DNA from: a virus
Taxonomy: Duplodnaviria; Caudoviricetes
Direction: 5' to 3' (one strand)
Length of the DNA: 27,461 bases
Virus record (IMG/VR): IMGVR_UViG_3300008255_000397
Coordinates: 1-27,461 of that record
In this document: in pieces, positions 1 to 25,431 of the stretch
Layout: each line of letters opens with the position of its first letter
How positions within the stretch are numbered: the first letter of the stretch is position 1
Program-made: the position numbers and the translations under genes
The notes under the pieces: model-generated
The model's input: only the letters and a program-made list of their open reading frames with translations
What the model was told of the DNA's origin: nothing
Database searches by the model: none

Positions 1-3000
1 CAATTTCATACAACCCTTTAGGAACATTGACCAAAAATCCTATAGGTGAGTATTCTGCTTCAATCTTAGCAATATTTATAGGCGTTTGAGTGAATGGAAT
101 AATTGCATCCAAAGCTAACGCTCCACCTTTATTATTACGCTTAAATTGATTTAATAAATTAGCAAACTTAGATGCTTGTTGAAATACCATTTTCTTTGAT
201 TCCATATCAGCAAAGATACGAGCTTCTGCAAGTTGTTTTGTTGTAATACTTTCAGCTGTCCATCCCTTAGTCATCATATACTGTGATAGGGAAGCAACAT
301 AAGCTGAGCGTCTGAAGATAATATCTTCTTTTTCTAACGCCCAAAAGTTGAATTTAGATGCTTTATTTAAAATATCACTCTTAAAGATGTTTCTCTTTCG
401 TTCAATCTTAGTTCTTTCATCATACTTACTTCCTGATGTCATTTCTTCAACGATTGAATCAAAATCAGCTTTTGCATAAGCTTTTAGTTTTTTATTAAAT
501 AAGTATCTTATATCTTTTGTTTTTTCTACTTGTGGGAACGCCATTTGTAACATTGTTACGCCTGTGTCTTTAACTAATCGAGTAGGCATCATGGCTGTAT
601 TCCCTAAGATATTACGGATATGTGTTGCAAAGTTCCCAAGCATCGATAAATATCTCCAAGCATTAAGTTTATCCATCAGAGTTCTAGGAACTTGATTTGC
701 TAAATCTTGAGATATTTCATCAACAACTTTTTGAATATCAGCTTTATCTGTTTGCTGTAAAAGCTTAACCTTTAAAGATTCATCAATGTATAATTGTAAA
801 ATTTCTCCATTATATTTTTTCTTTTTTTCTGTATATTCGCTATTTATTCTCTTCGTCATTCTTTCTAGTATCATTAACTGTCCACTAGCAGAAAGTTTTT
901 TAACCAAACTTAAAGCCTGAACAGCTTGACCTAGAAGCGTTCCTACGGAAGACAAAATCCCTATCATATCAACAGCTTTTTCTACTTGTTTAGAATTAGA
1001 ATATTTAACAATAATAGCTTCAGCTGTAGCAATATCAGCTTTAGTGAAAATCTTACCTTCTTCATAGTTATTGATTAAAGTTATTCTTTGGTTTTCTAAG
1101 TCTTCATCTGTTTGTATTCTGTTTTGTGCATCGATGACAGCTTGTTTATCTGATACTTGATTATAATCTAGTTCGCCCCTAGAAATCATATCTTCGACTT
1201 CTCCAGCAACAGCGTCAGAAACATTTCCACTAGCTATAATTGTTCGTGGATGCTTCCTTGTTCTTAAAGCTCCATCTCCTTGAATAACAGGCTTAGTAAT
1301 AACATCTTTCACATAAACTTGTGTATAAAAGTCGTTCATATCATCAAGCGATGGTATGTACTGGTCTTCCATTTCAGGTGGAATATTTGCTTCGTCAAAA
1401 TCAGGATAGAACTCTGAATCTTCTTCATAATTCTCTATAGCAGGTTTAACAGCTTCAACTTCAGCTACAGGTTGAACTATTTCTTGATTAACAGGCGTTT
1501 TTAGCTCTGTAGGCGATAGTTTAGCAACTGTTTCAGCACTTATCTCTACCCCAGCATTTGCTCCTTTAAGGATTTCATTTACCCAGTCATTAACCTTGAA
1601 AGAAATATACTTCTTGCCTTGACGGTTAAGCATATTCTTTTGGTTTGGTGCTAATCTAAACCATGAATAAAGAGCTTGTTGTAATAAATCAAGTTGACTT
1701 GTGGGCTTGTACTCCATCCCAAAGGTTCGAGCGATGTACTTCCATTGGTCTACCGTTCTTCGTTGAGATTTAGCATACCCTTTGACTGCATCTAAATACC
1801 CATTAAAAAGTGGATTTAAAGGTTGTTCACTATATTTCTTCTTAGCTTTTGTATATTCCTTTTTAATCCCTTCCCATGTTTCAAATTGTTTTAAATCTCC
1901 GAAAAGAACTTTTCTCTTGTTCTTCTCTCTTAAATCATCCAGCTCTTTTACTTCAGCAGATGTCAACCCAACTCTTCCATCTTCAATCAACCATTCAAGC
2001 GTTCTCAAGCGTTCTTGCTCTTTCAAACTCAAAGCTGAACCATAAATAGAATCCGTTAGTTGATGTTGAATCGATGCACTTTCATTCGCTCCAAAGTATT
2101 TACTCTTAGGATTGCTTGATGGATTCTTATTTTCGATTGACTTGCCCAATCCATCCTTCATGGTTAGATAAATATCAGAACCATTTTCTTGAAGTAGAAT
2201 TGCATCATAATCATAACCATTTTTAATTAAGAACTCTTTTAGAGCTGACCCTTCTAATCTTGAAGGAACTCCAGCTTCTGAAAGCTCATCAGCTACTGAA
2301 CTATATCTAGGAAGGAACTCTTCGTTATAAATAACTTTGTCAGCTTCGTTTCGTGTATCGAAAATCTTTCTTCCATCTAAGTACATAGCAGAAGTTATCT
2401 TTTTCATTCCTATTGATTGAAGGTACTCACTTGACTCAAGGCTTCCATCATACTTACTTGCCATAGATTCATCTGTATAAAGGAAAGTTCCAGCTCTGAG
2501 AATTGCTCCTTGCTCTAAAGTTCTACTTCCATAAAGGACTTGTAAGTTTTTGTTTGAATCTCTTACAGAACTCTCTTTGAATCTATTTTTTTGTCCGATA
2601 GAAAGCGTGTTACCTTTGGAATCTGAATCTTCTGAGTCAGCAATATTATATGCAAGTGAAGGTCTGATATAACCAAAATCTCTGATGTCGATAGCAATAT
2701 CAGGTTTATCAAAGTTTTCACTCATTCTGTCATGGTCTGAGATTCTCATTGTGAATGTTTTTGATTCAGGCATAAAAGGCGATATTTCAACGATGGATTT
2801 ATCTCCATACTTGCTGATTATATCTGCATAATTTTCAATCCCTATTTCAAGATAGATTGATGATGATGAACCTGAAGTTGTGATGTTTCTGAAAGGGATT
2901 CCTTTAAGAATCTTGTTAGCAAAGTCAAGCTTGTTCATCTCTTCTGCAAGTAATCCACTATCTCTTTGATATTCAATAGCATTTGTTCTTACTGTATCTT

Positions 3001-6000
3001 TTTGATTCTTGTACTCATTCAGTAAAGTATCTTTAATCTCTTTGAATGAAACGGGTCTATCTAAAGATTTTATGAACTCGTTAAACTCATAATGCTTGTT
3101 CATATTCCCTAGATTCAAGGCTTGTCTTCTTTGATAAATATCATAATCATCTTTTTTAACATTTATCTTTTCTTTTAGCCCATCAATATAACTTGTTGAC
3201 TTGATAGTTTGGAATTGTATGTCTTTTCCATCATTGATAGGAACTATTTGGTTACTATTAAAAACAGTATACTCAGGTTCTCCGTCAACAGTACCTTCCC
3301 CTGTATAAATAACTCCATCATAACCATTTTTGTATGCGTTTTTAGCTAGTTCTTTATCACTTGTTTCTAAGATATTTTCAGCGTTTAAATAAACTTCTTT
3401 AATATTTTTTCGTGGTGTTGTGAAGCCATACTTATTCATCAAATCAATAACATCACCAGGAACACTCATAAAGCTTGTAGGATTCAAAAATCCAAATACA
3501 TCATCTATGCTTAAATCTGTATCTCTTTCGATATACGCACCATCAACATATTTAGTTATATAAGATAATTCATTTAGGTCTATTCCTGCTTCTTTTTCAA
3601 CATCTTGAAACATTTCATAAGAATATTTATTAAAGAAATTATCCCATGCTTTTGAATATCCAACATTTACTAAATCATTAGCAAAGTCGCTTATCTTAGG
3701 ATATTTAGTTTCTACTTCTCCTAAAAATGTTTCCTTATCTATATTTTGGTTTCTATTAGCGTAGGCATACTTATCAGCAACTTCTTTTGAAGCTGTAAAG
3801 AAAATACCATCTCCTTGAAATTCATTATTTAAAACTGTTCTATTTTTACCCATATCAAAAATATCAAAATCCCTAGTAGTGCCATGATACATCCGTATTA
3901 AATTGCCATTTTCATCTCTAAATTTTGAATTATAAAGTTTAACTTCTTCTTCAGGTGATAATTGAAATTGAGAATCGCCATCCATCAGTGAATTAGACAC
4001 TTGTGGATTCCTATTATTAATGTCTTTGAATTGTGAAGGAAGGAACCCTATTTCAGCAACATCAGTGATGATTCCATCAAATCCTGTAGCATCGATGAAA
4101 GCTTGTTGATAATCTAAAATGACTGAGTTGAAAATATCAGGGTCTATATTATCTTCAAATAAATCATACACAGCAGATTCGGCTGTTTTCTTAACATTAA
4201 TAAGTTTGAACTTATCCTTGTAAGTGTAATCCCATGCGTGTAAATCGTTTATTAAATTATCAAGTTTCCCTGTGATGTTTCCATACTTAGCGTTTACTTC
4301 TTTCATCTTGTTAATGTAATCAAGCACAACTTCTCTAGTGGCAAATTGAGTTGAGTACTTTTCCATCCCATAAATTCCACTTGTGTAAATAGGATTCCTT
4401 ATGTCAGCATAAAGCTCTTTGACAATTTGGTCGGTAGAGTGTATGTATCTGAAAATTGCTGTTAATCCTGATGATGTATAAATTCCAAAACCATCTATAC
4501 CCCCCCTTCGAGAAGCGTTTCTAAAATCAAATGAATCAAAGTCTTCAAAAGTAGTGTGATATAAAGTTTGAATCAATCCACTCTCGTCTTTTGTAGCTGA
4601 TTTAGAAAAGAAATCTTCTTGAGTTGTTGAAATTACATTCCCAGCTGAATCGTGTCTAAGCGTTGAATCAAATTCTTTTATAAACTTCTCAGCCCATTCA
4701 ACATACCCTTTAGTGTTATGGTCTTTATATTTAGTCTTAGCTTCTTTGATAAAATCGATTAAGTAGTTGACATCATCCATTTCAATATAATTTTTTATGG
4801 TTTTTGTGCTTAACATATCTAAAACATCTATATCAACTTTTGTAATGTCATCAATTTTGTTCATTACATCTCTGTATTGAAATTGAATATCACTCTTGAA
4901 GGATGGATTCATATCGTTTACATCTTTGAACTGGTTGTTCGATAAATAAACATAATCTTCAACACCGTTATTATCAAAAATAACGCCATCATTTTGATAA
5001 CCGTTTAAATTTAGATACCCTAAAAGTTTAGAAGCATCTTCTTCATTCAAAAGCCCATCTTCATTAAGCTCGATGAAGTCAAAATTCTCACTGTTATACG
5101 CATTTAGAATGTCTTGGTTCAGTCTATCTCGTGTATCAAAAGGATTTTTAATAAGTAAATACCCTGATTTCCCACCTTTTCTAACCGTTTTAAGAGAGTT
5201 TTCATCGTCAAGAACTTTAGTACCCATAAAGTAAGTTTGTTGCTCTAGGCTTAGTTCTACCCCATTAGAATCGATTTTAGGTGCTGTAATCAACTGAAAT
5301 TGCCAATCTTTATTCGATTCAATGATAGGTTGTCTACCGTTAGCAATTCTTTCGTCATTATTATATTCATATTCAGAGAATGGAATATTTCTTAAAGCTA
5401 GTTCATTTCTAACATCTTCGGATGCGTTGTTTGGAACTAGAACATGAGATATTTCAGGAAATTCAATAATTGTTTTAGGTTTAGACTCAAAGTAAGTAAC
5501 CGTTAAATCTTTTACCATCTTCAAGGAATTATAAAGCCCTTCAGCATAGGTTAGCCCTTCTGAATCTTGAATCCCATCATCTTCAGTAATTTGTTCGTTA
5601 ATATTAAAGTAACCATAAGATTCAAATGCTTTAATGATATTTTCTACAGAAAGCTCTGTGCGTTTAGTAATAAATTCATCTAAAATCATCCCAGCTGATT
5701 CAGCTAACTTTGTATGTGAATCCATTCTATCTTCATATTTTGCATAAAGTTCACTGTATTCATCAGATAAATCAGGAACATCTTGGTCGAGAGCAACTCT
5801 GATTGATGACATATCATTTTCTGCCCAGTTAATTATTCTATCAAAATCATCGTTCTTCTCAAGCATATTTCTATTATTGATAACTTCATCCACACTCTTT
5901 AAAGTAGGTGTAAGAAATCCTTTATATTCTTTAACAGAACTAAAAGAACCAAATTCAGCTCCAATCATTTCTTTGGTAGCTTTCATCTTCTTATAAACAT

Positions 6001-9000
6001 TTTCAAGCGTTACAGGGATAAGAAGTTGAGAAGGCTTTCTGCGACCGTTATTCGTGTATAAATCAAGGTCGTTTCTCATATACTCTCCACCAAATTTAGA
6101 GATGTATTGAGTTATTATCCGTCTTATTTCTACAAGCTTATTTTGTTGTTCTTCTCTAAGAGCATAGTATTCATCTTGTGTAATCTCTTTTTTATCATAT
6201 CTTTCTCTTATTTTAGTTCTCTCAGCATCAAAATCTATGTCAAAATTGCCCCCTGTCATATCGTTGTAAATGGCCATCCCAGCTTTTGTACTTGAAAGTT
6301 TATTTGCTACATTATTATAATAGTCAAATTCACTGTTTCTTGTTTGATTAATGAAATATTCTATCTCTCTAAACCCATCTAAATCCTTGTACTTTTTTAC
6401 ATCTTCTTCAAAGTTTTTCAATGATTTAGAATCTGCAATAGCAAGGAAGGTTTTAGGGAATCTAGCTGTGTAAGCGTCAGCTTGATATGTAGGCGTTCCA
6501 TTAAGAACTTCTTTATTAAAAACAACAGTTATTTCCCCAAAATTTTCATGAGCTATCCCAGCCTTCGTAACAGCTAAAGAAGGCATAACAAACCCACCTA
6601 GACCCAAAGTTGCAAGGAACTTTTCTTCAGTCGTGTTATGAAGTACAACTAAATCTTTATCTAATCCTTCAGATATTCCGATGATGTTCGCACCATTTTT
6701 AACGATTTCGCTTAATGCTAAGTATTTCTTATAAAGAGCTATCTCATCAGGGTTTTTTGAATCTGCAAAGTTTCTAACATCCACTTCTTCAGTTACGGAT
6801 ATTTTTTCTCCGTAAACGGATTCATACATATTGATTTCAATTTGGTTCGTTAAATAGCGGTATGTATTTCTAACAAAGTTCAAAAGCTCCCCTAGTTGAT
6901 AAGTAGAAAGTTTTGAAGTGTTATTTTTTCTTTCTGTAAGCTTGTTGTTCAAAGCATTATTTATGATACCCAAAATATCATTGCTGTTTACTGTTCTGTC
7001 ATCAAAATTAGAGATGGTTGTGTACATTATTTCCATATCTTCATTAGTTAGATTAAAAGTTTTTTGAATATCATTCTTTGCCTTATTAATAGATTGACCG
7101 ATAACAAAGTTATCATAGTGCATCTTATTCATCTCTTCATTATCAGTTTTCTTATAAGCTCCTATTGAAATGTTATTTATGCGTTCAGTAAGTGGAAATT
7201 GTATTTGTTGAAATTGAGTATCAATACCTTGAGCTTGGTTAAGTACATTCCCTTTATTCGTTTTATATTCTTCTACAGCAAGTTTGAATATACCGTTTAA
7301 GTTTTCCAAATAATTCATGTTAGCAAGATATATTTGTGCGTTTGCTTCATCTTTCATAAGTTTAGCTGACTTAGCGTTCATATTCTTCACAACGCCATCA
7401 AAAACATCAGAAAGTTTTTCCATTACTGATGGATTCATACCAGCTAGTTTTTTAATATAAGATACCCTAAGACCAGCGTTTGAACCAAAAATAATCCTTT
7501 GGACAATCTCTTCTGCAATAAATTCAGATTGACCTACATTAACTCCACTAGCATAAGTTGCTGTAGCTGTAGTGTTGTATGTTTCAGGATTTGTAGCAAT
7601 AGCTTCTGCTTCTTTATAAAAAGCATCTCCCATTGTGGACTGAACTAAAGCAGTAAGTTTTTTATACTCTCCTGTTCGCTCCATAATATGAGTAACTTCA
7701 TGTCCAAATGACCGAGCTAGTATATTTCTTCCATCTCGCTCAATGACATACATTTTTTTATTTTTATTATCTACAAAAGCATTTGATTTTTTAAGCTTTT
7801 CTACAGGTTCGTTAGATTCTCTTGAAAGCTTAGCAATAGCTTCATCAGTATTTTCGATAGAAACATACTCATATCCATATACATCTTTGGATATTTTTTT
7901 AGCAATTTCAGTTGCTACTTCAGGGTCTAAATTATGAATAGTTGAACTATTTGCGATGCTCTCCATCGTTTTCATCGTTACAGCTTGAGTAACATTCATA
8001 GATACAGCTGTTAAAGCTCCCATAATGAACGATTCTAAAACATCTGAACCGAGTTCTTTGCCAGTTCTATCTTCAATGTCATATAACTTTCTAACGCCAT
8101 ACCCAGCTATTTCAGAAACAATTTCTTCAAAACCTTCTTCAACTCCATCTGCAATTAGTTTCACAGCTTTTATAGCAAGAGCTTTTTTAGCTACATTCGC
8201 AAAAGCATCTGTTATTCTTTTATCTCTACCTGCTTGAAATGCTTTAGCCCATTTACTAGAACCAACCATTCCTATACCAGCAAACATCATTTCAGAAGCA
8301 ACTTCAATTCCACCCATTAAAGCACCATAAACACCTGCTTGGTCTCCTGTTAATCCAGCATTTAACCCATCTCCAATAGCTCTTGAAGATGAAATCGCAT
8401 ACATAACAACTAATCCACCACCACCCAAAACAGCATTAGTTGCTATCATGGTGCTCATGTCTATCATTCCTGAAGTGATTAAATTGCCCCACTTCACAAT
8501 GTTATTTATATCTTTACTTGCATATTCTTTATCAAAATCCAACTTAACTTTGTTTAAGTATGCACTGTCTTTTCGAAGCATTTCTCTTCCGTTATCTTGA
8601 ATGAAATTAAATACAGAATCTATATTTTCCTTCATCTCAGGAAGCATTATTAAAGAATCAATATAATCTCCACCAAACTTCTGAGCATAGTTTCTGAGTT
8701 GAGCCACTTGCGATGTAACCCCAAAATAAGCTTGTTTAGGCTGATGAGCGACTCTTTCAAATGTATTTATAAGGTTATCCTTCGTAAAGGAAATATTATC
8801 AGCTACAGTTTGAAATTCTTTAGCATAATACTCAGCACCTTTATCATAATTTTCAGGGTTGTAAGGGTCGAAAGTTTCAGGCTTTGCAGTCGTGTACAAA
8901 TCAGTATAAAGATTCCCTGACTTTTCAAGGAAGCTCTTGTTAAGAGAGTCTAAAGAACTGTTCTTATTTAGATATGAAAAAGTATTTTGTTGTATAACCT

Positions 9001-9163
9001 TAGTCGTATCAACGCTTTTAACAGATGAAAAGATACTGTTCTGATTGCTTTTTAAAGTCGGTTTATGAACAGTTTTATTAATTGCTAATTCGTCTGTTTT
9101 ACCTAAGGCTGTCTGAATCGTACTCTTATACTTATTCTCTAAATCGAGTTCGTTCTTTATCAT
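1..9163 (-). CDS. Giant polyvalent internal virion/DNA-ejection protein (>=3054 aa, 3' end outside window): MPTase plus multiple ADP-ribosyltransferase-like domains
   Basis: ATG at 9163 is preceded by AGGAG, which overlaps the upstream stop. The N-terminus reads MIKNELDLENKYKSTIQ. The same frame is open at the left edge (DAIIPFTQTPINIAKIEAEYSPIGF) and in every segment I translated. The ORF track lists no stop-terminated minus ORF in 1-9163, consistent with one uninterrupted frame. Motifs: GVEEGFEE (~8125-8148), HEVTH (7688-7702), LHNTTEEK..MPSLAVTK (~6565-6645), YHTT (~4550-4561), YHGT (~3878-3889), RISDH (2732-2746), WRYLSMLGNFATHIRNILG (602-658). Confidence 0.9.
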   Translation of the reverse strand, partial: MIKNELDLENKYKSTIQTALGKTDELAINKTVHKPTLKSNQNSIFSSVKSVDTTKVIQQNTFSYLNKNSSLDSLNKSFLEKSGNLYTDLYTTAKPETFDPYNPENYDKGAEYYAKEFQTVADNISFTKDNLINTFERVAHQPKQAYFGVTSQVAQLRNYAQKFGGDYIDSLIMLPEMKENIDSVFNFIQDNGREMLRKDSAYLNKVKLDFDKEYASKDINNIVKWGNLITSGMIDMSTMIATNAVLGGGGLVVMYAISSSRAIGDGLNAGLTGDQAGVYGALMGGIEVASEMMFAGIGMVGSSKWAKAFQAGRDKRITDAFANVAKKALAIKAVKLIADGVEEGFEEIVSEIAGYGVRKLYDIEDRTGKELGSDVLESFIMGALTAVSMNVTQAVTMKTMESIANSSTIHNLDPEVATEIAKKISKDVYGYEYVSIENTDEAIAKLSRESNEPVEKLKKSNAFVDNKNKKMYVIERDGRNILARSFGHEVTHIMERTGEYKKLTALVQSTMGDAFYKEAEAIATNPETYNTTATATYASGVNVGQSEFIAEEIVQRIIFGSNAGLRVSYIKKLAGMNPSVMEKLSDVFDGVVKNMNAKSAKLMKDEANAQIYLANMNYLENLNGIFKLAVEEYKTNKGNVLNQAQGIDTQFQQIQFPLTERINNISIGAYKKTDNEEMNKMHYDNFVIGQSINKAKNDIQKTFNLTNEDMEIMYTTISNFDDRTVNSNDILGIINNALNNKLTERKNNTSKLSTYQLGELLNFVRNTYRYLTNQIEINMYESVYGEKISVTEEVDVRNFADSKNPDEIALYKKYLALSEIVKNGANIIGISEGLDKDLVVLHNTTEEKFLATLGLGGFVMPSLAVTKAGIAHENFGEITVVFNKEVLNGTPTYQADAYTARFPKTFLAIADSKSLKNFEEDVKKYKDLDGFREIEYFINQTRNSEFDYYNNVANKLSSTKAGMAIYNDMTGGNFDIDFDAERTKIRERYDKKEITQDEYYALREEQQNKLVEIRRIITQYISKFGGEYMRNDLDLYTNNGRRKPSQLLIPVTLENVYKKMKATKEMIGAEFGSFSSVKEYKGFLTPTLKSVDEVINNRNMLEKNDDFDRIINWAENDMSSIRVALDQDVPDLSDEYSELYAKYEDRMDSHTKLAESAGMILDEFITKRTELSVENIIKAFESYGYFNINEQITEDDGIQDSEGLTYAEGLYNSLKMVKDLTVTYFESKPKTIIEFPEISHVLVPNNASEDVRNELALRNIPFSEYEYNNDERIANGRQPIIESNKDWQFQLITAPKIDSNGVELSLEQQTYFMGTKVLDDENSLKTVRKGGKSGYLLIKNPFDTRDRLNQDILNAYNSENFDFIELNEDGLLNEEDASKLLGYLNLNGYQNDGVIFDNNGVEDYVYLSNNQFKDVNDMNPSFKSDIQFQYRDVMNKIDDITKVDIDVLDMLSTKTIKNYIEMDDVNYLIDFIKEAKTKYKDHNTKGYVEWAEKFIKEFDSTLRHDSAGNVISTTQEDFFSKSATKDESGLIQTLYHTTFEDFDSFDFRNASRRGGIDGFGIYTSSGLTAIFRYIHSTDQIVKELYADIRNPIYTSGIYGMEKYSTQFATREVVLDYINKMKEVNAKYGNITGKLDNLINDLHAWDYTYKDKFKLINVKKTAESAVYDLFEDNIDPDIFNSVILDYQQAFIDATGFDGIITDVAEIGFLPSQFKDINNRNPQVSNSLMDGDSQFQLSPEEEVKLYNSKFRDENGNLIRMYHGTTRDFDIFDMGKNRTVLNNEFQGDGIFFTASKEVADKYAYANRNQNIDKETFLGEVETKYPKISDFANDLVNVGYSKAWDNFFNKYSYEMFQDVEKEAGIDLNELSYITKYVDGAYIERDTDLSIDDVFGFLNPTSFMSVPGDVIDLMNKYGFTTPRKNIKEVYLNAENILETSDKELAKNAYKNGYDGVIYTGEGTVDGEPEYTVFNSNQIVPINDGKDIQFQTIKSTSYIDGLKEKINVKKDDYDIYQRRQALNLGNMNKHYEFNEFIKSLDRPVSFKEIKDTLLNEYKNQKDTVRTNAIEYQRDSGLLAEEMNKLDFANKILKGIPFRNITTSGSSSSIYLEIGIENYADIISKYGDKSIVEISPFMPESKTFTMRISDHDRMSENFDKPDIAIDIRDFGYIRPSLAYNIADSEDSDSKGNTLSIGQKNRFKESSVRDSNKNLQVLYGSRTLEQGAILRAGTFLYTDESMASKYDGSLESSEYLQSIGMKKITSAMYLDGRKIFDTRNEADKVIYNEEFLPRYSSVADELSEAGVPSRLEGSALKEFLIKNGYDYDAILLQENGSDIYLTMKDGLGKSIENKNPSSNPKSKYFGANESASIQHQLTDSIYGSALSLKEQERLRTLEWLIEDGRVGLTSAEVKELDDLREKNKRKVLFGDLKQFETWEGIKKEYTKAKKKYSEQPLNPLFNGYLDAVKGYAKSQRRTVDQWKYIARTFGMEYKPTSQLDLLQQALYSWFRLAPNQKNMLNRQGKKYISFKVNDWVNEILKGANAGVEISAETVAKLSPTELKTPVNQEIVQPVAEVEAVKPAIENYEEDSEFYPDFDEANIPPEMEDQYIPSLDDMNDFYTQVYVKDVITKPVIQGDGALRTRKHPRTIIASGNVSDAVAGEVEDMISRGELDYNQVSDKQAVIDAQNRIQTDEDLENQRITLINNYEEGKIFTKADIATAEAIIVKYSNSKQVEKAVDMIGILSSVGTLLGQAVQALSLVKKLSASGQLMILERMTKRINSEYTEKKKKYNGEILQLYIDESLKVKLLQQTDKADIQKVVDEISQDLANQVPRTLMDKLNAWRYLSMLGNFATHIRNILGNTAMMPTRLVKDTGVTMLQMAFPQVEKTKDIRYLFNKKLKAYAKADFDSIVEEMTSGSKYDERTKIERKRNIFKSDILNKASKFNFWALEKEDIIFRRSAYVASLSQYMMTKGWTAESITTKQLAEARIFADMESKKMVFQQASKFANLLNQFKRNNKGGALALDAIIPFTQTPINIAKIEAEYSPIGFLVNVPKGLYEI

Positions 9164-9174
9164 TCTTTATGCTC

Positions 9175-10365
9175 CTATCTTCCACTACGATTTTTTAAAT
9201 AGTCATAAGCATATCTATAAATATCATCTGCCGACTGTTTTGATATATATTCATTATCTAAAGCTGATTGAACAGCAGTTTTAACAGAGCCTATCTTTGT
9301 TCCTGATGTTATAGCTTGTGTAACATCGTTAAAAAGTGTAACTCTATTAGTTGTTTCGTTTTTTGCTTGTTCAGCTATACTAGCATTTTGAGATTGAATA
9401 GCTTTAGCTTTATCTATCGCTAGATTTTGCATATTTTGTTTATAAGATAAGTCATATTTAGACTTATCCATCCCAACATTTTGTAAATTTTGCTTAAAAG
9501 AAAGGTCATACTGAGCTTTATTTAAACCAACATTCTCTACATTTTGTCCATAGGCTAGACTTTGAGCTTCTCTAGCTCTTTGAATTGCACTCATGGCTGT
9601 AGCATAATTAGCCTTGATAAGCTTTTGATTCCCTTTATAAGTGTTCTCAACCTTTGCATCATAAAGGTTCTCATACCCAGTGTTAGCTAATCCAGCTTGT
9701 GAAAGTACATTTTTAGCAACTCTTTGTGATTGCATTTTAGCAACATACGCAGATTGAGCTTCCGTTGTATTAGCTTCATCATGCTCAGCTTGTTGCTCGT
9801 TTATTTGCTTAGTAGCTAAATCAAAATCTTGTTGAAGTTGCTTGAGTTGAAGAGTGTATTGTTGACTCCCTAAACCATAAGATTCTTCAAGCTGTTTTCG
9901 TTGTACTTCAAACTGATTCATCATTAACTGATACTCTTCACTTAATTGATTAGTAATAGCTTGATATTCAGCATTTATTTGAGATGAATTATTGCTATTA
10001 GTTGTTTGTGTGCTTCCACTTGGGCTACCTTTATCTCCAGTATCTTCATCAGGTTTAGCATCCAGTTTTCGTGTTGTTGCGTTCATACTGGAAACAGAAA
10101 GACTTGGTATTGATGATAACCCTTTAGTTGTTTTATTCATACTCGAAACAGAAAGCGTAGGAATAGGTGCTGACGGTGCGACTTTTACAGGTGCTAAATA
10201 TGGCGTAGGCGTTACCTTTGTTGTCGTTACATTACTTCTGATAGGGATGGCCGGTGTCGTTTTCGTCTTAACCATCGCTGAAATAGCATTTTGTAATGTT
10301 GTGGTGTTTGTATTTGTCTTTTTAAGATAATCAGTATTATTTGAACCTAAAGTCATTGTTGCCAT
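9175..10365 (-). CDS. Putative DNA ejection/pilot (internal virion) protein, coiled coil
   Basis: 396 aa with RBS AGGAG. T/P/S-rich N-terminus, Q/A-rich coiled coil and an LSQAGLANTGY motif. Lies between the tail genes and the giant protein, the usual position of podovirus ejection proteins. Confidence 0.6.
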   Translation of the reverse strand: MATMTLGSNNTDYLKKTNTNTTTLQNAISAMVKTKTTPAIPIRSNVTTTKVTPTPYLAPVKVAPSAPIPTLSVSSMNKTTKGLSSIPSLSVSSMNATTRKLDAKPDEDTGDKGSPSGSTQTTNSNNSSQINAEYQAITNQLSEEYQLMMNQFEVQRKQLEESYGLGSQQYTLQLKQLQQDFDLATKQINEQQAEHDEANTTEAQSAYVAKMQSQRVAKNVLSQAGLANTGYENLYDAKVENTYKGNQKLIKANYATAMSAIQRAREAQSLAYGQNVENVGLNKAQYDLSFKQNLQNVGMDKSKYDLSYKQNMQNLAIDKAKAIQSQNASIAEQAKNETTNRVTLFNDVTQAITSGTKIGSVKTAVQSALDNEYISKQSADDIYRYAYDYLKNRSGR

Positions 10366-16640: not shown

Positions 16641-17696
16641 CTATGCTGTATAAGTAGCTGAAACTACATCTGAATCGCACTTAGCATCTGTTCTTCCAAA
16701 CACTTTGATGGTAACACCATCGGTTAGAGTTACAGCGCCTGAGTAAATCGTTTTACTCATTGAATAGCGTGGGTCTGTCCCATCTGTAGTGTAATAGAAT
16801 GTTACTCCTGAAACTGCACCGACTGCATAAGAATCACCAGTAGGTGTGATAACAGGGTCAGCTGTTTTATTAGCTGTAAGAACACCAGCATAAACTGAAC
16901 CTTCTTTAGCGCCTAAAACGAAAGCGTCAAATTTTGAACGACCTTCAAGCACATTACCATCGATTCCAGCAACTTCATTAAGAATACGAAGTGTGCTGAT
17001 TTTCATAGGATAAAGAACGCCTTCAGGATTCCAAATTAAGAATTGTACGCCAGTAGGCATATAGGATGAAGGTACACGAACAATCTTAGCCATCATGAAT
17101 GTTCCAACAACCCCTTTAGGAAGGATTTGACTCGAAAGTGGGTCAGATGCTAGATATTCGCTTGATAAGCGTAGTTTGCTGTATTCATCTACAGGTAAAG
17201 CGATATAACGATTTTCACTTGGAACATTATGTTCATCAAGTTCTGCTAAACCAGCTTCAAGGAAACCTACGATTGTAGATTTTGAAGGTTCAGCAACAAC
17301 AACTGATTTGTGAGCTTTCCACGCCCATTGTTTAAGAGCATATTTATCTTCATAAGGAACGAGTTGTTCTTTGATTTGAAGATTCATCATATCCCCAGCA
17401 CCTTTGATATTCATTTGGTCTGTGGTATTCCCTTTATCAATGGTAATCGCAAAACTCTTATCTTGCGATAATGTAAGTTCTTGTACAGAATCTCCCATTT
17501 CAACAGGCGTACCGAAACGACTTGAACCTGACTTAGTATAATCACTAAGAGCTACCGTTTGTGGTGTGTAAACTCTGATGGTAGAAACACCTATGAAATC
17601 ATATTTCGTTGATGCTTTACCAGCTAGAAAAGATTCTTGATTCCATTTAGTAAGAATTTGTGGTTCATACTTTAATGCTAAATTGATACTTGCCAT
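16641..17696 (-). CDS. Major capsid protein (HK97 fold) with C-terminal Ig-like (Fn3-associated/CHB_HEX_C-like) domain
   Basis: 351 aa downstream of the scaffold, strong RBS AAGGAG. Motifs SDYTKSGSSRFG, ELTLSQDKSFAITID and EGRSKFDAFVL. C-terminal PVITP..FYYTTDGTDPR..IKVFG. Confidence 0.85.
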   Translation of the reverse strand: MASINLALKYEPQILTKWNQESFLAGKASTKYDFIGVSTIRVYTPQTVALSDYTKSGSSRFGTPVEMGDSVQELTLSQDKSFAITIDKGNTTDQMNIKGAGDMMNLQIKEQLVPYEDKYALKQWAWKAHKSVVVAEPSKSTIVGFLEAGLAELDEHNVPSENRYIALPVDEYSKLRLSSEYLASDPLSSQILPKGVVGTFMMAKIVRVPSSYMPTGVQFLIWNPEGVLYPMKISTLRILNEVAGIDGNVLEGRSKFDAFVLGAKEGSVYAGVLTANKTADPVITPTGDSYAVGAVSGVTFYYTTDGTDPRYSMSKTIYSGAVTLTDGVTIKVFGRTDAKCDSDVVSATYTA

Positions 17697-22485: not shown

Positions 22486-22536
22486 TTAACTTTTGTTTAA
22501 CTTTCGCTTGACATATGTTTAACACTTTGGTATTGT
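22486..22536 (+). promoter_or_regulatory. Strong sigma-A promoter with 11-bp-phased direct repeats
   Basis: TTGACA(22508-22513)-17-TATTGT(22531-22536) with TGn extension. TTRAC(A/T) hexamers at 22486, 22497, 22508 and 22519. RBS AAGGGG at 22561. Confidence 0.75.
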
Positions 22537-22574
22537 AGAGATGCAAGAGATGAACATCTCAAGGGGAATCAGTT

Positions 22575-22802
22575 ATGAAACAAACATTTAGAGTAGTAGG
22601 AACGCTTATCACTAGAACATCAGAAACTCATGAGTATGGATTTGCTGTTGTAGGTCTTAATCAAAAAGATGGTAGAGCATGGGCTTTCAGTAAAACTTAT
22701 GAAGGTGCTGTGAGTGCTAGAAGAACTTTACTTAATCATAAAAGCATCCATTTGAATCCTGAATTAGTTGTAATCAAAGAAGTTGAGAAGGTTTCAAAAT
22801 GA
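22575..22802 (+). CDS. Hypothetical early protein (75 aa)
   Basis: RBS AAGGGG. First gene after the promoter, with ATGA coupling to the next gene. Confidence 0.7.
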   Translation: MKQTFRVVGTLITRTSETHEYGFAVVGLNQKDGRAWAFSKTYEGAVSARRTLLNHKSIHLNPELVVIKEVEKVSK

Positions 22803-23053
22803 AGTACATACTTACTCAAGTTGATACTGATGAGATTACTGAATTTGAATCCAAAGAATCTTGCTTTAAATCATTAAAGAATCAAATCAAACAATTCTAT
22901 GACCGAGAAGTTTATGAAGATGAAACATGGGATGAAGAGCATCCTGTATCATTCACAAAATGGTTAGCAAATATTACACGAGAAAAGATTGCTGAGCTAG
23001 AATCCGATTACACTGAAGTTAGTACGATGTTCTATAGCAAAGTGAAAGCCTAA
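22799..23053 (+). CDS. Hypothetical acidic early protein (84 aa)
   Basis: Coupled ATGA overlap, D/E-rich. Confidence 0.7.
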   Translation: MKYILTQVDTDEITEFESKESCFKSLKNQIKQFYDREVYEDETWDEEHPVSFTKWLANITREKIAELESDYTEVSTMFYSKVKA

Positions 23054-23070
23054 GGGCTGGGAGAAAAATA

Positions 23071-23355
23071 ATGTTTAAAAAATTAAACGCAATAGAAGTT
23101 GATGATATTACATTCCTATTTGAAGTTGAATATAATAAGCACACAGTTAATGGGATTAAAGATGTTAAGTTTACAATCAAACACTTTTATAACCTAGCGT
23201 CAGGCTCAGATGTCAAAATCAAAGTCTTATCAGCTGTTACTATCCTTGATGCAATCTGCTACTTCAATAACCTTTGCCTACAATTTGATTTAAGTGGAAT
23301 GGGATTATCTGCCTTGATTGACTATACTTATGAATTATATGAAGCGAAAGCCTAA
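23071..23355 (+). CDS. Hypothetical protein (94 aa)
   Basis: RBS GGAG, in-operon spacing. Confidence 0.65.
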   Translation: MFKKLNAIEVDDITFLFEVEYNKHTVNGIKDVKFTIKHFYNLASGSDVKIKVLSAVTILDAICYFNNLCLQFDLSGMGLSALIDYTYELYEAKA

Positions 23356-23366
23356 AGGATAGGATA

Positions 23367-23663
23367 ATGAAACTAATGACAAACATCGAAGTAATCCAAT
23401 CATATCTTAATCAAAAAAACGCTCGTAACCTAAGCTTGAAAAGCAAGAACGGAAAGCTCTTCTCATATGATACTTGTGTATCTCAATATGATTATGGAAA
23501 GATTATTGTAAACACAACTAAATACACGAAGACAACAGCGCATCAAGTAAACACTCTTATTGAAGAGCTTGGAAGAATCCCTGAGCAAAAGATTGAGTTT
23601 GTGGAAGGTATCCAAAGAGATACTGAATCTCTATGCTCAGATGTAACAGGAGAGTGGAAATAA
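23367..23663 (+). CDS. Conserved phage early protein (LFSYDT..KYTKTT motif family)
   Basis: RBS AAGGA/AGGA. The motif resembles the widespread uncharacterised phage family SY.T..YS.TT..H/Q. Confidence 0.65.
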   Translation: MKLMTNIEVIQSYLNQKNARNLSLKSKNGKLFSYDTCVSQYDYGKIIVNTTKYTKTTAHQVNTLIEELGRIPEQKIEFVEGIQRDTESLCSDVTGEWK

Positions 23664-23914
23664 TGAACATCCAAAAAGAACGCTTAGAATCCTTGCTTGA
23701 AACATCCCTAGAGATGCAACTGAATCTAAACGCAACTATAGCTAAAGGAGAATTGAATCCAAAGCAAATCGAGAAGGCTATCCATCTTCATCATGAATAC
23801 ACCCACGCTATCATTGCTTATGTAGGGAACTCAGATGCTGACAAACTTAACACCAAAATTTATGATTTGATTGTTCGCTTTAACGCCATCGTGCTTAACT
23901 GGAATCAAGACTAA
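23663..23914 (+). CDS. Hypothetical protein (likely start MNIQKE, 83 aa)
   Basis: TAATG stop-start overlap at 23661-23665 with upstream GGAG. The ORF track uses the longer start at 23633. Confidence 0.6.
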   Translation: MNIQKERLESLLETSLEMQLNLNATIAKGELNPKQIEKAIHLHHEYTHAIIAYVGNSDADKLNTKIYDLIVRFNAIVLNWNQD

Positions 23915-23992
23915 TTTGAATCAAGGGTTGTAGGTCATCCCATATCCCCACCATATAAAAACCTTCATTCAATTTAAACAAAGGAACTCACA

Positions 23993-24562
23993 ATGAAACT
24001 AAAGAACGAAGCTAAACAATGGCTTGTCTGCCTAGCATTTGCTTTGATTTGGCTAATGATTTATATCTTCCTTAACTTACCATCATCTTCATCAGTTCAC
24101 GCTGTGCAAGAGCAACCTGAAGGGCTGATAGGACTTCAGTACTCAGAACCATGTTCGAATTCAAGTGTTAAAACATACATGGATTATCGAACAATCACAT
24201 CCCCTACGAGTAAGCAATATCAAATCATTCAGGAACGGTTGACAATTAGCAATGGGTTTCTGATATATGATGGTTTACGGATTGGCGTTGCTCTAGGTTC
24301 AGCTTTCGGAGAAGTCGGTTCAAAGTGGGATTTCATTCTAAGTTCAGGTCTTCAACTAAATGTCATTAAAATTGAAGAAAAGGCTGATGAACACACTCTG
24401 AACGGATGTCAACATGAAACTGATGGCTCAGTGATTGAGTTTGTGATTGATACAACTTATGAAGGATTTGATACTTATGAGAATGGCTACTTATACGGTG
24501 GGAATTTCAATAAATTAGATATGTTCTCAGGAACAATCGAGAAAGCGAGAAAAGTAGAATGA
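23993..24562 (+). CDS. Membrane-anchored exported protein, possible DPBB/3D-like cell-wall-acting domain
   Basis: RBS AAGGA, N-terminal TM helix WLVCLAFALIWLMIYIFLNL, and motifs KTYMDYRTIT..SKQY, VALGS, KADEHT, GSVIEFVID. Confidence 0.55.
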   Translation: MKLKNEAKQWLVCLAFALIWLMIYIFLNLPSSSSVHAVQEQPEGLIGLQYSEPCSNSSVKTYMDYRTITSPTSKQYQIIQERLTISNGFLIYDGLRIGVALGSAFGEVGSKWDFILSSGLQLNVIKIEEKADEHTLNGCQHETDGSVIEFVIDTTYEGFDTYENGYLYGGNFNKLDMFSGTIEKARKVE

Positions 24563-24888
24563 CAGCAAAAATAGAGAAGTGTATGTATTGTGGTAGAGAG
24601 CTTGATAATAGCCGATATATCGTTCATGAATCTGATAATAATATCGTCTACAAGTATTGTTCAAAGCCTTGTTGCGAAATGGGTCATCAGGCTCATGTGG
24701 ATGAGCGCAAACAAGTTCTGATTCAGGATGCGTGGTCTGATGTATACGATGCTCTACATGATTTGCTAAGCGAGTTAGAAGGTGGCGATATTGATTTCAC
24801 ATATGATGACTTTATAGGGAATTATCCTAATCTACTGAATCATTCATACTTCTTAAACAAGCTTATCAAAAAGGGAGAACTGAAATGA
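24559..24888 (+). CDS. Zinc-finger (TRASH/treble-clef-like) protein
   Basis: CMYC..YCSKPC followed by an acidic helical C-terminus. Confidence 0.6.
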   Translation: MTAKIEKCMYCGRELDNSRYIVHESDNNIVYKYCSKPCCEMGHQAHVDERKQVLIQDAWSDVYDALHDLLSELEGGDIDFTYDDFIGNYPNLLNHSYFLNKLIKKGELK

Positions 24889-25199
24889 ATAACTTAATGA
24901 AAATGTTAATTGAACTAATTACTGGGAATCAATTTACTAATGAGTTTACACAAAACGACCCTGAATATGCTAAATGGGAAATATCAAGATGCTACCTTAA
25001 CTCAACCTATTATGTAGAGCTATTTGAATATGCTACAATATCCAAATTTGAGCTGAATAAGATTAAGGTTCATAGTGGATTTGAACTAGCAACTTTAGTA
25101 GAATCATTTTGGACAGAAGATGAGAACATAGAAGATAATGAATCAAAAGCTTATTTAGATTTCATGAAGAAACTATTAAAAGAATCAATAGGTAGCTAA
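24885..25199 (+). CDS. Hypothetical acidic protein (104 aa)
   Basis: RBS GGGAG, ATGA overlap. Confidence 0.65.
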   Translation: MNNLMKMLIELITGNQFTNEFTQNDPEYAKWEISRCYLNSTYYVELFEYATISKFELNKIKVHSGFELATLVESFWTEDENIEDNESKAYLDFMKKLLKESIGS

Positions 25200-25200
25200 C

Positions 25201-25431
25201 ATGAAGCGTAAACTCAAGAAGATTTGTGATGACTTATCTGAGCATCATTTCATCGTTAAAAAGTATAATGATATGAGAATCGATTTAATCAAGAATAATC
25301 TTTGCATCATTATTGAGCATGACATCATCGATGAATCCTACTCGTTCAATGTATTTAGCGATTATAAAGCTGTGTATCGTAAGGATTTCATCAACGAAAC
25401 CGATTTAGATTTCCTTTACAAGCTTATTTAA
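25201..25431 (+). CDS. Hypothetical protein (76 aa)
   Basis: RBS AGGT. Last gene before the terminator. Confidence 0.6.
   Translation: MKRKLKKICDDLSEHHFIVKKYNDMRIDLIKNNLCIIIEHDIIDESYSFNVFSDYKAVYRKDFINETDLDFLYKLI

Follow-up and report, generated by a model that had tools for sequence, protein, structure and literature searches.

A junction motif with a lineage-specific last letter in giant phage polyvalent proteins, a putative cleavage site of their predicted resident metallopeptidase

Self-processing of phage polyvalent proteins was predicted in 2017 from the case of P1 DdrB, which is reported to be cut before packaging (Iyer et al. 2017, PMC5512222). Here we analyse a giant gene of this kind, and a short motif recurring in its product, on a 27 461-nucleotide stretch of tailed phage DNA (IMG/VR record IMGVR_UViG_3300008255_000397, positions 1 to 27 461; hereafter the window). 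Like the phage-type polyvalent proteins with a zincin-like metallopeptidase (MPTase), the product is a giant multidomain protein encoded near virion genes, with an HExxH peptidase, ART-PolyVal and PBECR5 domains. Unlike the MPTase, the window's peptidase matches no Pfam family, and the main-text passages of PMC5512222 describe no cut-site motif, lineage-specific letter or exchange at such a site. We propose, with a probability of about 0.58, that the motif is the recognition and putative cut site of the resident zincin-like peptidase (HEVTH), placed at the joints of exchangeable modules.

The protein also resembles, as far as passages of the sources describe them, the F116/H66-type and N4-type IVP-D-like ejection proteins (PMC4819975, PMC13434306) and phi24B gp47, whose authors assign its peptidase to peptidoglycan (10.64898/2026.04.10.717836): these are large, head-packaged and carry cytoplasmic enzyme domains and HExxH. 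Any kinship of the window's C-terminal region to IVP-D is hypothetical. F116 p60 and USP_25 gp31, from cultured Pseudomonas phages (L118:8953-13902, L119:1-13917), possess a pair of HExxH domains and, next to the ART domain, [LR]FSR sites that match the S form of the motif described below.

Two systems outside the phages bear comparison. In RNA-virus polyproteins one gene gives rise to several proteins, and the junction motif is specific to the protease; here, by contrast, the protease would be the metallopeptidase of a double-stranded DNA phage, and the junctions double as points of cassette exchange. The earlier note on this DNA, made from the sequence alone, had drawn an analogy with MARTX autoprocessing. 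MARTX is a secreted bacterial toxin that acts on eukaryotic targets, and its cysteine protease needs a host cofactor. The likeness, a built-in protease that frees variable effector modules at short linker sites, is a loose analogy only; we saw no shared domains, with no Pfam or NCBIfam match to MARTX repeats or the cysteine protease domain in the 3054 amino acids (aa). The phage polyvalent proteins of PMC5512222 are the better frame. No description of the motif, including the string DIRYS, was found in the full-text literature, a search whose coverage leaves out most subscription papers.

The five DxQFQ sites and the variant SIQHQ on which the earlier note was built are all present and in frame in open reading frame (ORF) 9163..<2 (minus strand):

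7208..7222, minus strand: motif 1, DTQFQ, aa 648-652, after the peptidase
5294..5308, minus strand: motif 2, DWQFQ, aa 1286-1290, closing the PBECR5 module
4877..4891, minus strand: motif 3, DIQFQ, aa 1425-1429
3962..3976, minus strand: motif 4, DSQFQ, aa 1730-1734
3209..3223, minus strand: motif 5, DIQFQ, aa 1981-1985
2060..2074, minus strand: motif 6, SIQHQ, aa 2364-2368, where the conserved C-terminal region starts

The first Gln of DxQFQ lies at aa 650, 1288, 1427, 1732 and 1983, and that of SIQHQ at aa 2366; relatives have SIQHS, AVQHQ, DIRFQ or NIRFQ at the position of motif 6. Five DxQFQ copies compare with 0.014 expected, and two or more occurred in none of 20 000 shuffles. The best gapped four-letter pattern reached p = 5e-12, whereas 200 shuffles went no lower than 1.4e-7, so it passes this look-elsewhere control by four orders of magnitude. 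Even the looser pattern [DE]x[QKR][FYLMH]Q had no match across the 23 other ORFs of the window (5696 aa). Each motif closes a module: Pfam ART-PolyVal matches end a few residues ahead of motifs 3, 4 and 5, and BLAST segments against relatives terminate at the motifs. The claim that the motifs mark domain ends does not hold in reverse, as boundaries at about aa 830, 1510 and 2190 are motif-free; some modules therefore contain two domains. The argument from synonymous codon variation, read previously as a sign of constraint on the protein, is weak in the window. The minority codons in the motifs (CAG for 1 of 10 Gln, TTC for 1 of 5 Phe, GAC for 1 of 5 Asp) match gene-wide use (CAA 101/113, TTT 98/139, GAT 185/229), and because the motif codons are the gene's majority codons they carry little information from the window alone.

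Relatives were more informative. Searches yielded 34, 10 and at least 120 of them (120 of 260 listed), with loci numbered L001-L117. A protein search with aa 150-700 of the giant protein gave no matches, single-protein scans of viral contigs yielded no loci, PF18760 was present in only 3 of 401 sampled genomes, and the C-terminal region had no match among annotated phages. In this family the window's DxQFQ is the local form of a junction motif that usually reads D-I-R-[YF]-S: when over-represented words were sought blindly, several of the first 34 relatives had D.RYS, IRYS, DIR.S or a similar string among their highest-ranking ones. Across 44 representative loci, the giant ORFs (121 108 aa) contain 75 copies of [DNE][IVTM][RK][FY]S and the neighbouring frames (105 084 aa) contain 4, a density about 16 times higher in the giant ORF. 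In 98 representatives (less than 75% peptidase identity), 161 sites lie after the first peptidase and 5 before it, while in 37 loci with a closed 3′ end the last site is at least 695 aa from the protein end. As a side observation, two motifs in L009 and L020 (protein aa approx. 1080-1125) lie so close that the module between them measures only some 15 aa; it may be what is left of a deleted cassette.

The last letter of the motif is not constant across the family. Using ART-anchored patterns that left it free, we found at least one junction in 235 of 278 pooled proteins (a redundant set); the 395 junctions ended in S (277), K (30), Q (23), A (21), M (12), E (12), L (11), D (7) or another residue (2), counts which, like the pair counts and ART tree below, retain a few wrong pattern labels (P0002 'IGTYSK', WINDOW_1519, L044, L066 and a doubled P0040 row). 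Among the representatives, 67 have two or more junctions, and their letters agree within a protein in 136 of 157 pairs, where 5000 shuffles gave a mean of 107 and a maximum of 124. For pairs with a non-S letter, 19 of 40 agree (0.9 expected). K, A and M proteins repeat their own letter at unrelated junctions: P0008 and L101 have mostly [YF]A and P0009 mostly [FY]M, and the P0021 group repeats YK-L at four dissimilar junctions.

The Q-type proteins, namely that of the window and those nearest to it, group in one peptidase clade, with support of 100 in a quick tree (Shimodaira–Hasegawa-like approximate likelihood ratio test, SH-aLRT) and 96 in a second, and Q marks nearly all their junctions. 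Read without any pattern from a whole-protein alignment, Gln follows the peptidase in 7 of 7 and PBECR5 in 7 of 7 relatives that reach those columns; at the other junctions Gln appears in pattern-picked lists, the last site being SIQHS in two relatives. The aromatic position varies in this clade (F, Y, L, M, H, A, Q) and Gln is kept.

Shared letters could reflect duplication of modules within a gene, so the ancestry of the modules matters. In a tree built from 118 ART modules without their motif (FastTree support only), modules of the Q clade and those ending in A, M or L lie dispersed among S modules: letter changes number 6 for 7 Q-clade modules (6.9 in shuffles), 8 for 9 A modules and 5 for 5 M modules. 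Paired modules of one protein are only 33-45% identical and yet have the letter in common, whereas S-ending modules elsewhere are up to 61-68% identical to them. The scatter and the lower identity between modules of the same protein mean that duplication does not explain the shared letter. The last letter follows the host protein and not module ancestry; the earlier note had asked whether homologues carry their own boundary motif varying with the peptidase, and the answer is positive.

The same data bear on whether the motif is simply the last structural strand of each domain, a reading that we consider very improbable. In its favour, D-I-R is nearly fixed at ART ends (142, 136 and 141 of 148) and mixed at other junctions, and may therefore be part of the ART fold; in an ART model the family's R-Y columns form a two-residue β-bridge; and Pfam PBECR5 matches start at the motif in S-type proteins. 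Because the window's motif aligns five columns off the family's, the ART model does not discriminate here. The motif, however, ends unrelated domains (the peptidase, PBECR5 and others), its letter is independent of ART ancestry, and motif 1 lies within a stretch with a predicted local distance difference test score (pLDDT) under 50. A further argument comes from a single example, the stand-alone ART gene of Dickeya phage JA11 (gp190), which ends ENILE-stop at the motif's place and lacks the aromatic-Ser pair; the stop position fits a product end at the motif. As an aside on PBECR5, in L007:9266-17026 and P0040 the Pfam model begins at the junction motif itself (profile position 2), and the motif appears to be embedded unnoticed in the public profile.

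Whole modules are exchanged at the motif in near-identical relatives. Eleven related phage genes, most with ends 93-99% identical, carry different modules between x[FYHL]S motifs, among them MuF-C, PBECR3, PBECR5, a methyltransferase-like domain and ART. Homology breakpoints fall within 8 aa of a motif in 38 of 67 cases (10% expected). They are not independent of one another, and the motif pattern was broadened following an initial pass that gave 51 of 127 against 5.5% expected. A second exchange point was observed in L006-L027 about 15 aa past the last motif, where two C-terminal region types toggle. The earlier note had offered module shuffling as an alternative to cleavage; shuffling at the motif is directly seen, but it does not compete with the cut-site reading.

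These breakpoints would also be expected if the motif were a recombination joint and nothing else, short shared DNA permitting in-frame swaps, gene conversion keeping one letter per gene and the protein sequence being a by-product. Four window sites form a 17-nucleotide DNA repeat family (82% identity), and within genes synonymous positions agree at 104 of 162 against 87 expected (z = 2.8). The remaining 58 of 162 differ, and the excess of 1.19-fold only equals that of the YHGT control (56 against 47.5), three other controls showing little or none. In the eleven-gene clade the junction Ser codon is TCC in 18 of 28 cases (not independent) against 11% gene-wide; given this preference, microhomology may help exchange. 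Family-wide, though, five Ser codons are in use (TCT 25, TCA 19, TCC 18, TCG 5, AGT 4), and the Q clade varies the aromatic but keeps Gln, as expected of a protein signal. There is no fixed DNA site as in a site-specific recombination cassette, junction codons varying across the family, and no recombinase match was found among the window ORFs scanned. We regard a joint acting in DNA only as improbable.

If the motif is instead a protein signal, as we favour, it would be read by a resident protein, most plausibly the invariant peptidase:

7244..7912, minus strand: predicted zincin/gluzincin-like metallopeptidase, aa approx. 418-640, presumed active

The HEVTH helix provides H488, E489 and H492 (7688-7702), and a second helix provides E547 (7523-7525) as candidate third ligand; a structural model has three strands before the HExxH helix and two helices. 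All four residues are invariant in nine clade members. In 40 peptidases about 15-24% identical to the window's, the H, E, H and a downstream E are likewise invariant, although there the window Glu that aligns is E552. The invariant catalytic Glu and zinc ligands suggest active hydrolysis of some substrate. The best PDB matches of the peptidase profile are mostly zincins, but weak and mixed with non-zincins (MJ1213, E = 0.0017; ColG, E = 0.0047), and the ESM Atlas returned unnamed clusters only. All 66 complete locus ORFs that contain a junction also carry a peptidase domain; 65 were detected by profile, and the remaining one has HEITH upstream of the start Met chosen.

On this reading the peptidase would cut at the motifs to free a peptidase end, five payload modules and the C-terminal region; cuts after each motif would give seven pieces of about 72, 74, 16, 35, 29, 44 and more than 78 kDa. 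Cutting might take place in the head or, as the earlier note proposed, in the host cell after injection. An incoming module with a foreign letter would stay fused until its junction matched the resident peptidase, and this would explain the re-coding of letters.

Several observations weigh against peptidase cleavage. Besides lacking a significant Pfam match, the peptidase domain was modelled with a predicted template modelling score (pTM) of 0.43, and Foldseek gave no fold match at E 0.001. The 66 loci were found via homology and are not a random sample. P0017 and P0026 have HEVLG(E), without the second His, yet retain three RYS sites; their peptidase is either inactive or has an altered zinc site. 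In Dolichospermum phage Dfl-JY45, a 2387-aa ORF with four motif-like sites is devoid of HExxH; the closest instance found belongs to a gene about 10 kb upstream. An S-type site at a distance of 85-200 aa past HExxH is present in only 34 of the 98 representatives, compared with 23 in random windows. Letters are mixed in several proteins (S/D, S/Q, M/A, S/A), Q is found singly outside the Q clade, and the switch to Q is one evolutionary event. No peptidase residue cleanly predicts the last letter; the position after ExxA is mostly D/N in S-type proteins and E/Q in the Q clade, a lead only, as exceptions exist and the pattern missed many rows. Finally, the N4 virion RNA polymerase, which also has an HExxH domain, is reported to be packaged uncut (PMC5512222).

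Some of these points would suit a docking or threading signal, bound but left uncut, whether by the peptidase-like domain, by the ejection channel or by the C-terminal region, with modules packed or passed singly. Such a signal accounts equally well for constraint at the protein level and for host-specific letters, and it agrees with the relatives in which the zinc motif is altered or a peptidase in cis is absent, as well as with the uncut N4 polymerase. We nevertheless consider it unlikely, as the catalytic Glu and zinc ligands are kept in all 40 peptidases and the literature searched offered no precedent. The few cases with an absent or altered peptidase could also point to a host protease, or a phage protease encoded elsewhere, with the letter tracking the host lineage. 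That is far less probable: the in-cis association holds in every complete locus ORF, and no other head-module ORF in the window, which covers an incomplete phage genome, has the motif or a protease match.

The giant gene has the setting and content expected of a polyvalent protein:

2..9163, minus strand: giant phage polyvalent protein gene, 3054+ aa, 3′ end cut off at the window edge
7964..9163, minus strand: N-terminal region, aa 1-400, kept in relatives, with a Gly-rich hydrophobic stretch (aa 239-258), motif-free
5294..7207, minus strand: module 2, aa 653-1290, unassigned helical domain and PBECR5 predicted RNase (PF18814, E = 6e-21)
4877..5293, minus strand: module 3, aa 1291-1429, degenerate ART-PolyVal-like unit without the YHG strand
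3962..4876, minus strand: module 4, aa 1430-1734, small unassigned domain and ART-PolyVal-like domain (YHTT, GIYT, DG)
3209..3961, minus strand: module 5, aa 1735-1985, ART-PolyVal domain (Pfam E = 3.5e-16), swapped module
2060..3208, minus strand: module 6, aa 1986-2368, unassigned domain and second degenerate ART-like unit
2..2059, minus strand: C-terminal region, aa 2369 onward, conserved, motif-free, without Pfam match

Upstream on the same (minus) strand lie genes for a terminase, a P22-like portal, a scaffold-like protein, the major head protein and tail proteins, including a tail fibre match. Alongside the HExxH peptidase, Pfam detects PBECR5 (E = 6e-21 to 4e-20) and ART-PolyVal (E = 7e-19, three stretches); the protein has four ART-PolyVal-like units. 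Several unrelated enzyme domains, a virion-gene neighbourhood and modules that vary among relatives are the marks of a polyvalent protein. From the gene order and by analogy with PMC5512222, the protein is likely to be packed in the head and injected. We infer from the same evidence that it is virion-borne; that a protein reads the motif, that the peptidase is this reader and that it cuts are likewise inferred.

Module 5 illustrates the exchange in the window itself: modules of P0001 and P0002 match it at 54-58% identity, but P0035, P0036 and P0003, the closest relatives, have other modules between the same two motifs. The earlier note had taken the modules to be effectors, which holds in part. 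Candidate residues for the ART-PolyVal H-Y-D triad (His in strand 1, Tyr in strand 2, Asp in strand 5) are seen in module 4 (YHTT/GIYT/DG) and, with Phe replacing Tyr, in module 5 (YHGT/GIFFT/DG), but modules 3 and 6 have no catalytic His strand; with two of four ART-like units so affected, not every piece is an active effector. The units without the His strand (4877-5293 and 2060-2611, minus strand) are kept at 50-53% and 36-42% identity, respectively, in the three closest relatives and may be binding or decoy domains. Three unassigned domains at 2594-3208, 6674-7207 and 4634-4876 (minus strand) are also kept in close relatives and have no significant Pfam match; aa 1986-2190 had no match in the ESM Atlas.

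Elsewhere in the window, a 396-aa ORF immediately upstream of the giant gene (9175-10365, minus strand) is rich in Thr/Ser and Gln; no convincing family match was found, and its position suggests a second ejection protein. In the major head protein (16641-17696, minus strand), aa 297-349 form a C-terminal Fn3-associated/CHB_HEX_C-like domain. A block of short plus-strand ORFs with reversed skews (22500-25400) separates the packaging genes from the replication genes; within it, ORF 23993-24562 has a hydrophobic N-terminus and no Pfam match.

More broadly, the chances seem about even that polyvalent proteins are genuine polyproteins whose cut site, shared across the family and coded by lineage ([RKQ]-[FY]-S/Q/K/A/M/L), is also the exchange point for payload cassettes, incoming cassettes being re-coded to suit the resident peptidase. 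Although predicted since 2017, autoprocessing of these proteins has lacked a known site, and a defined motif makes the prediction testable; the S form is carried by the cultured phages F116 and USP_25, which are usable test systems. The motif also provides a rule for splitting giant unannotated phage proteins into real units, and it shows how phages swap presumably injected anti-host enzymes in the form of cassettes. Should the letters mirror specificity, the family would constitute a natural set of short-motif proteases.

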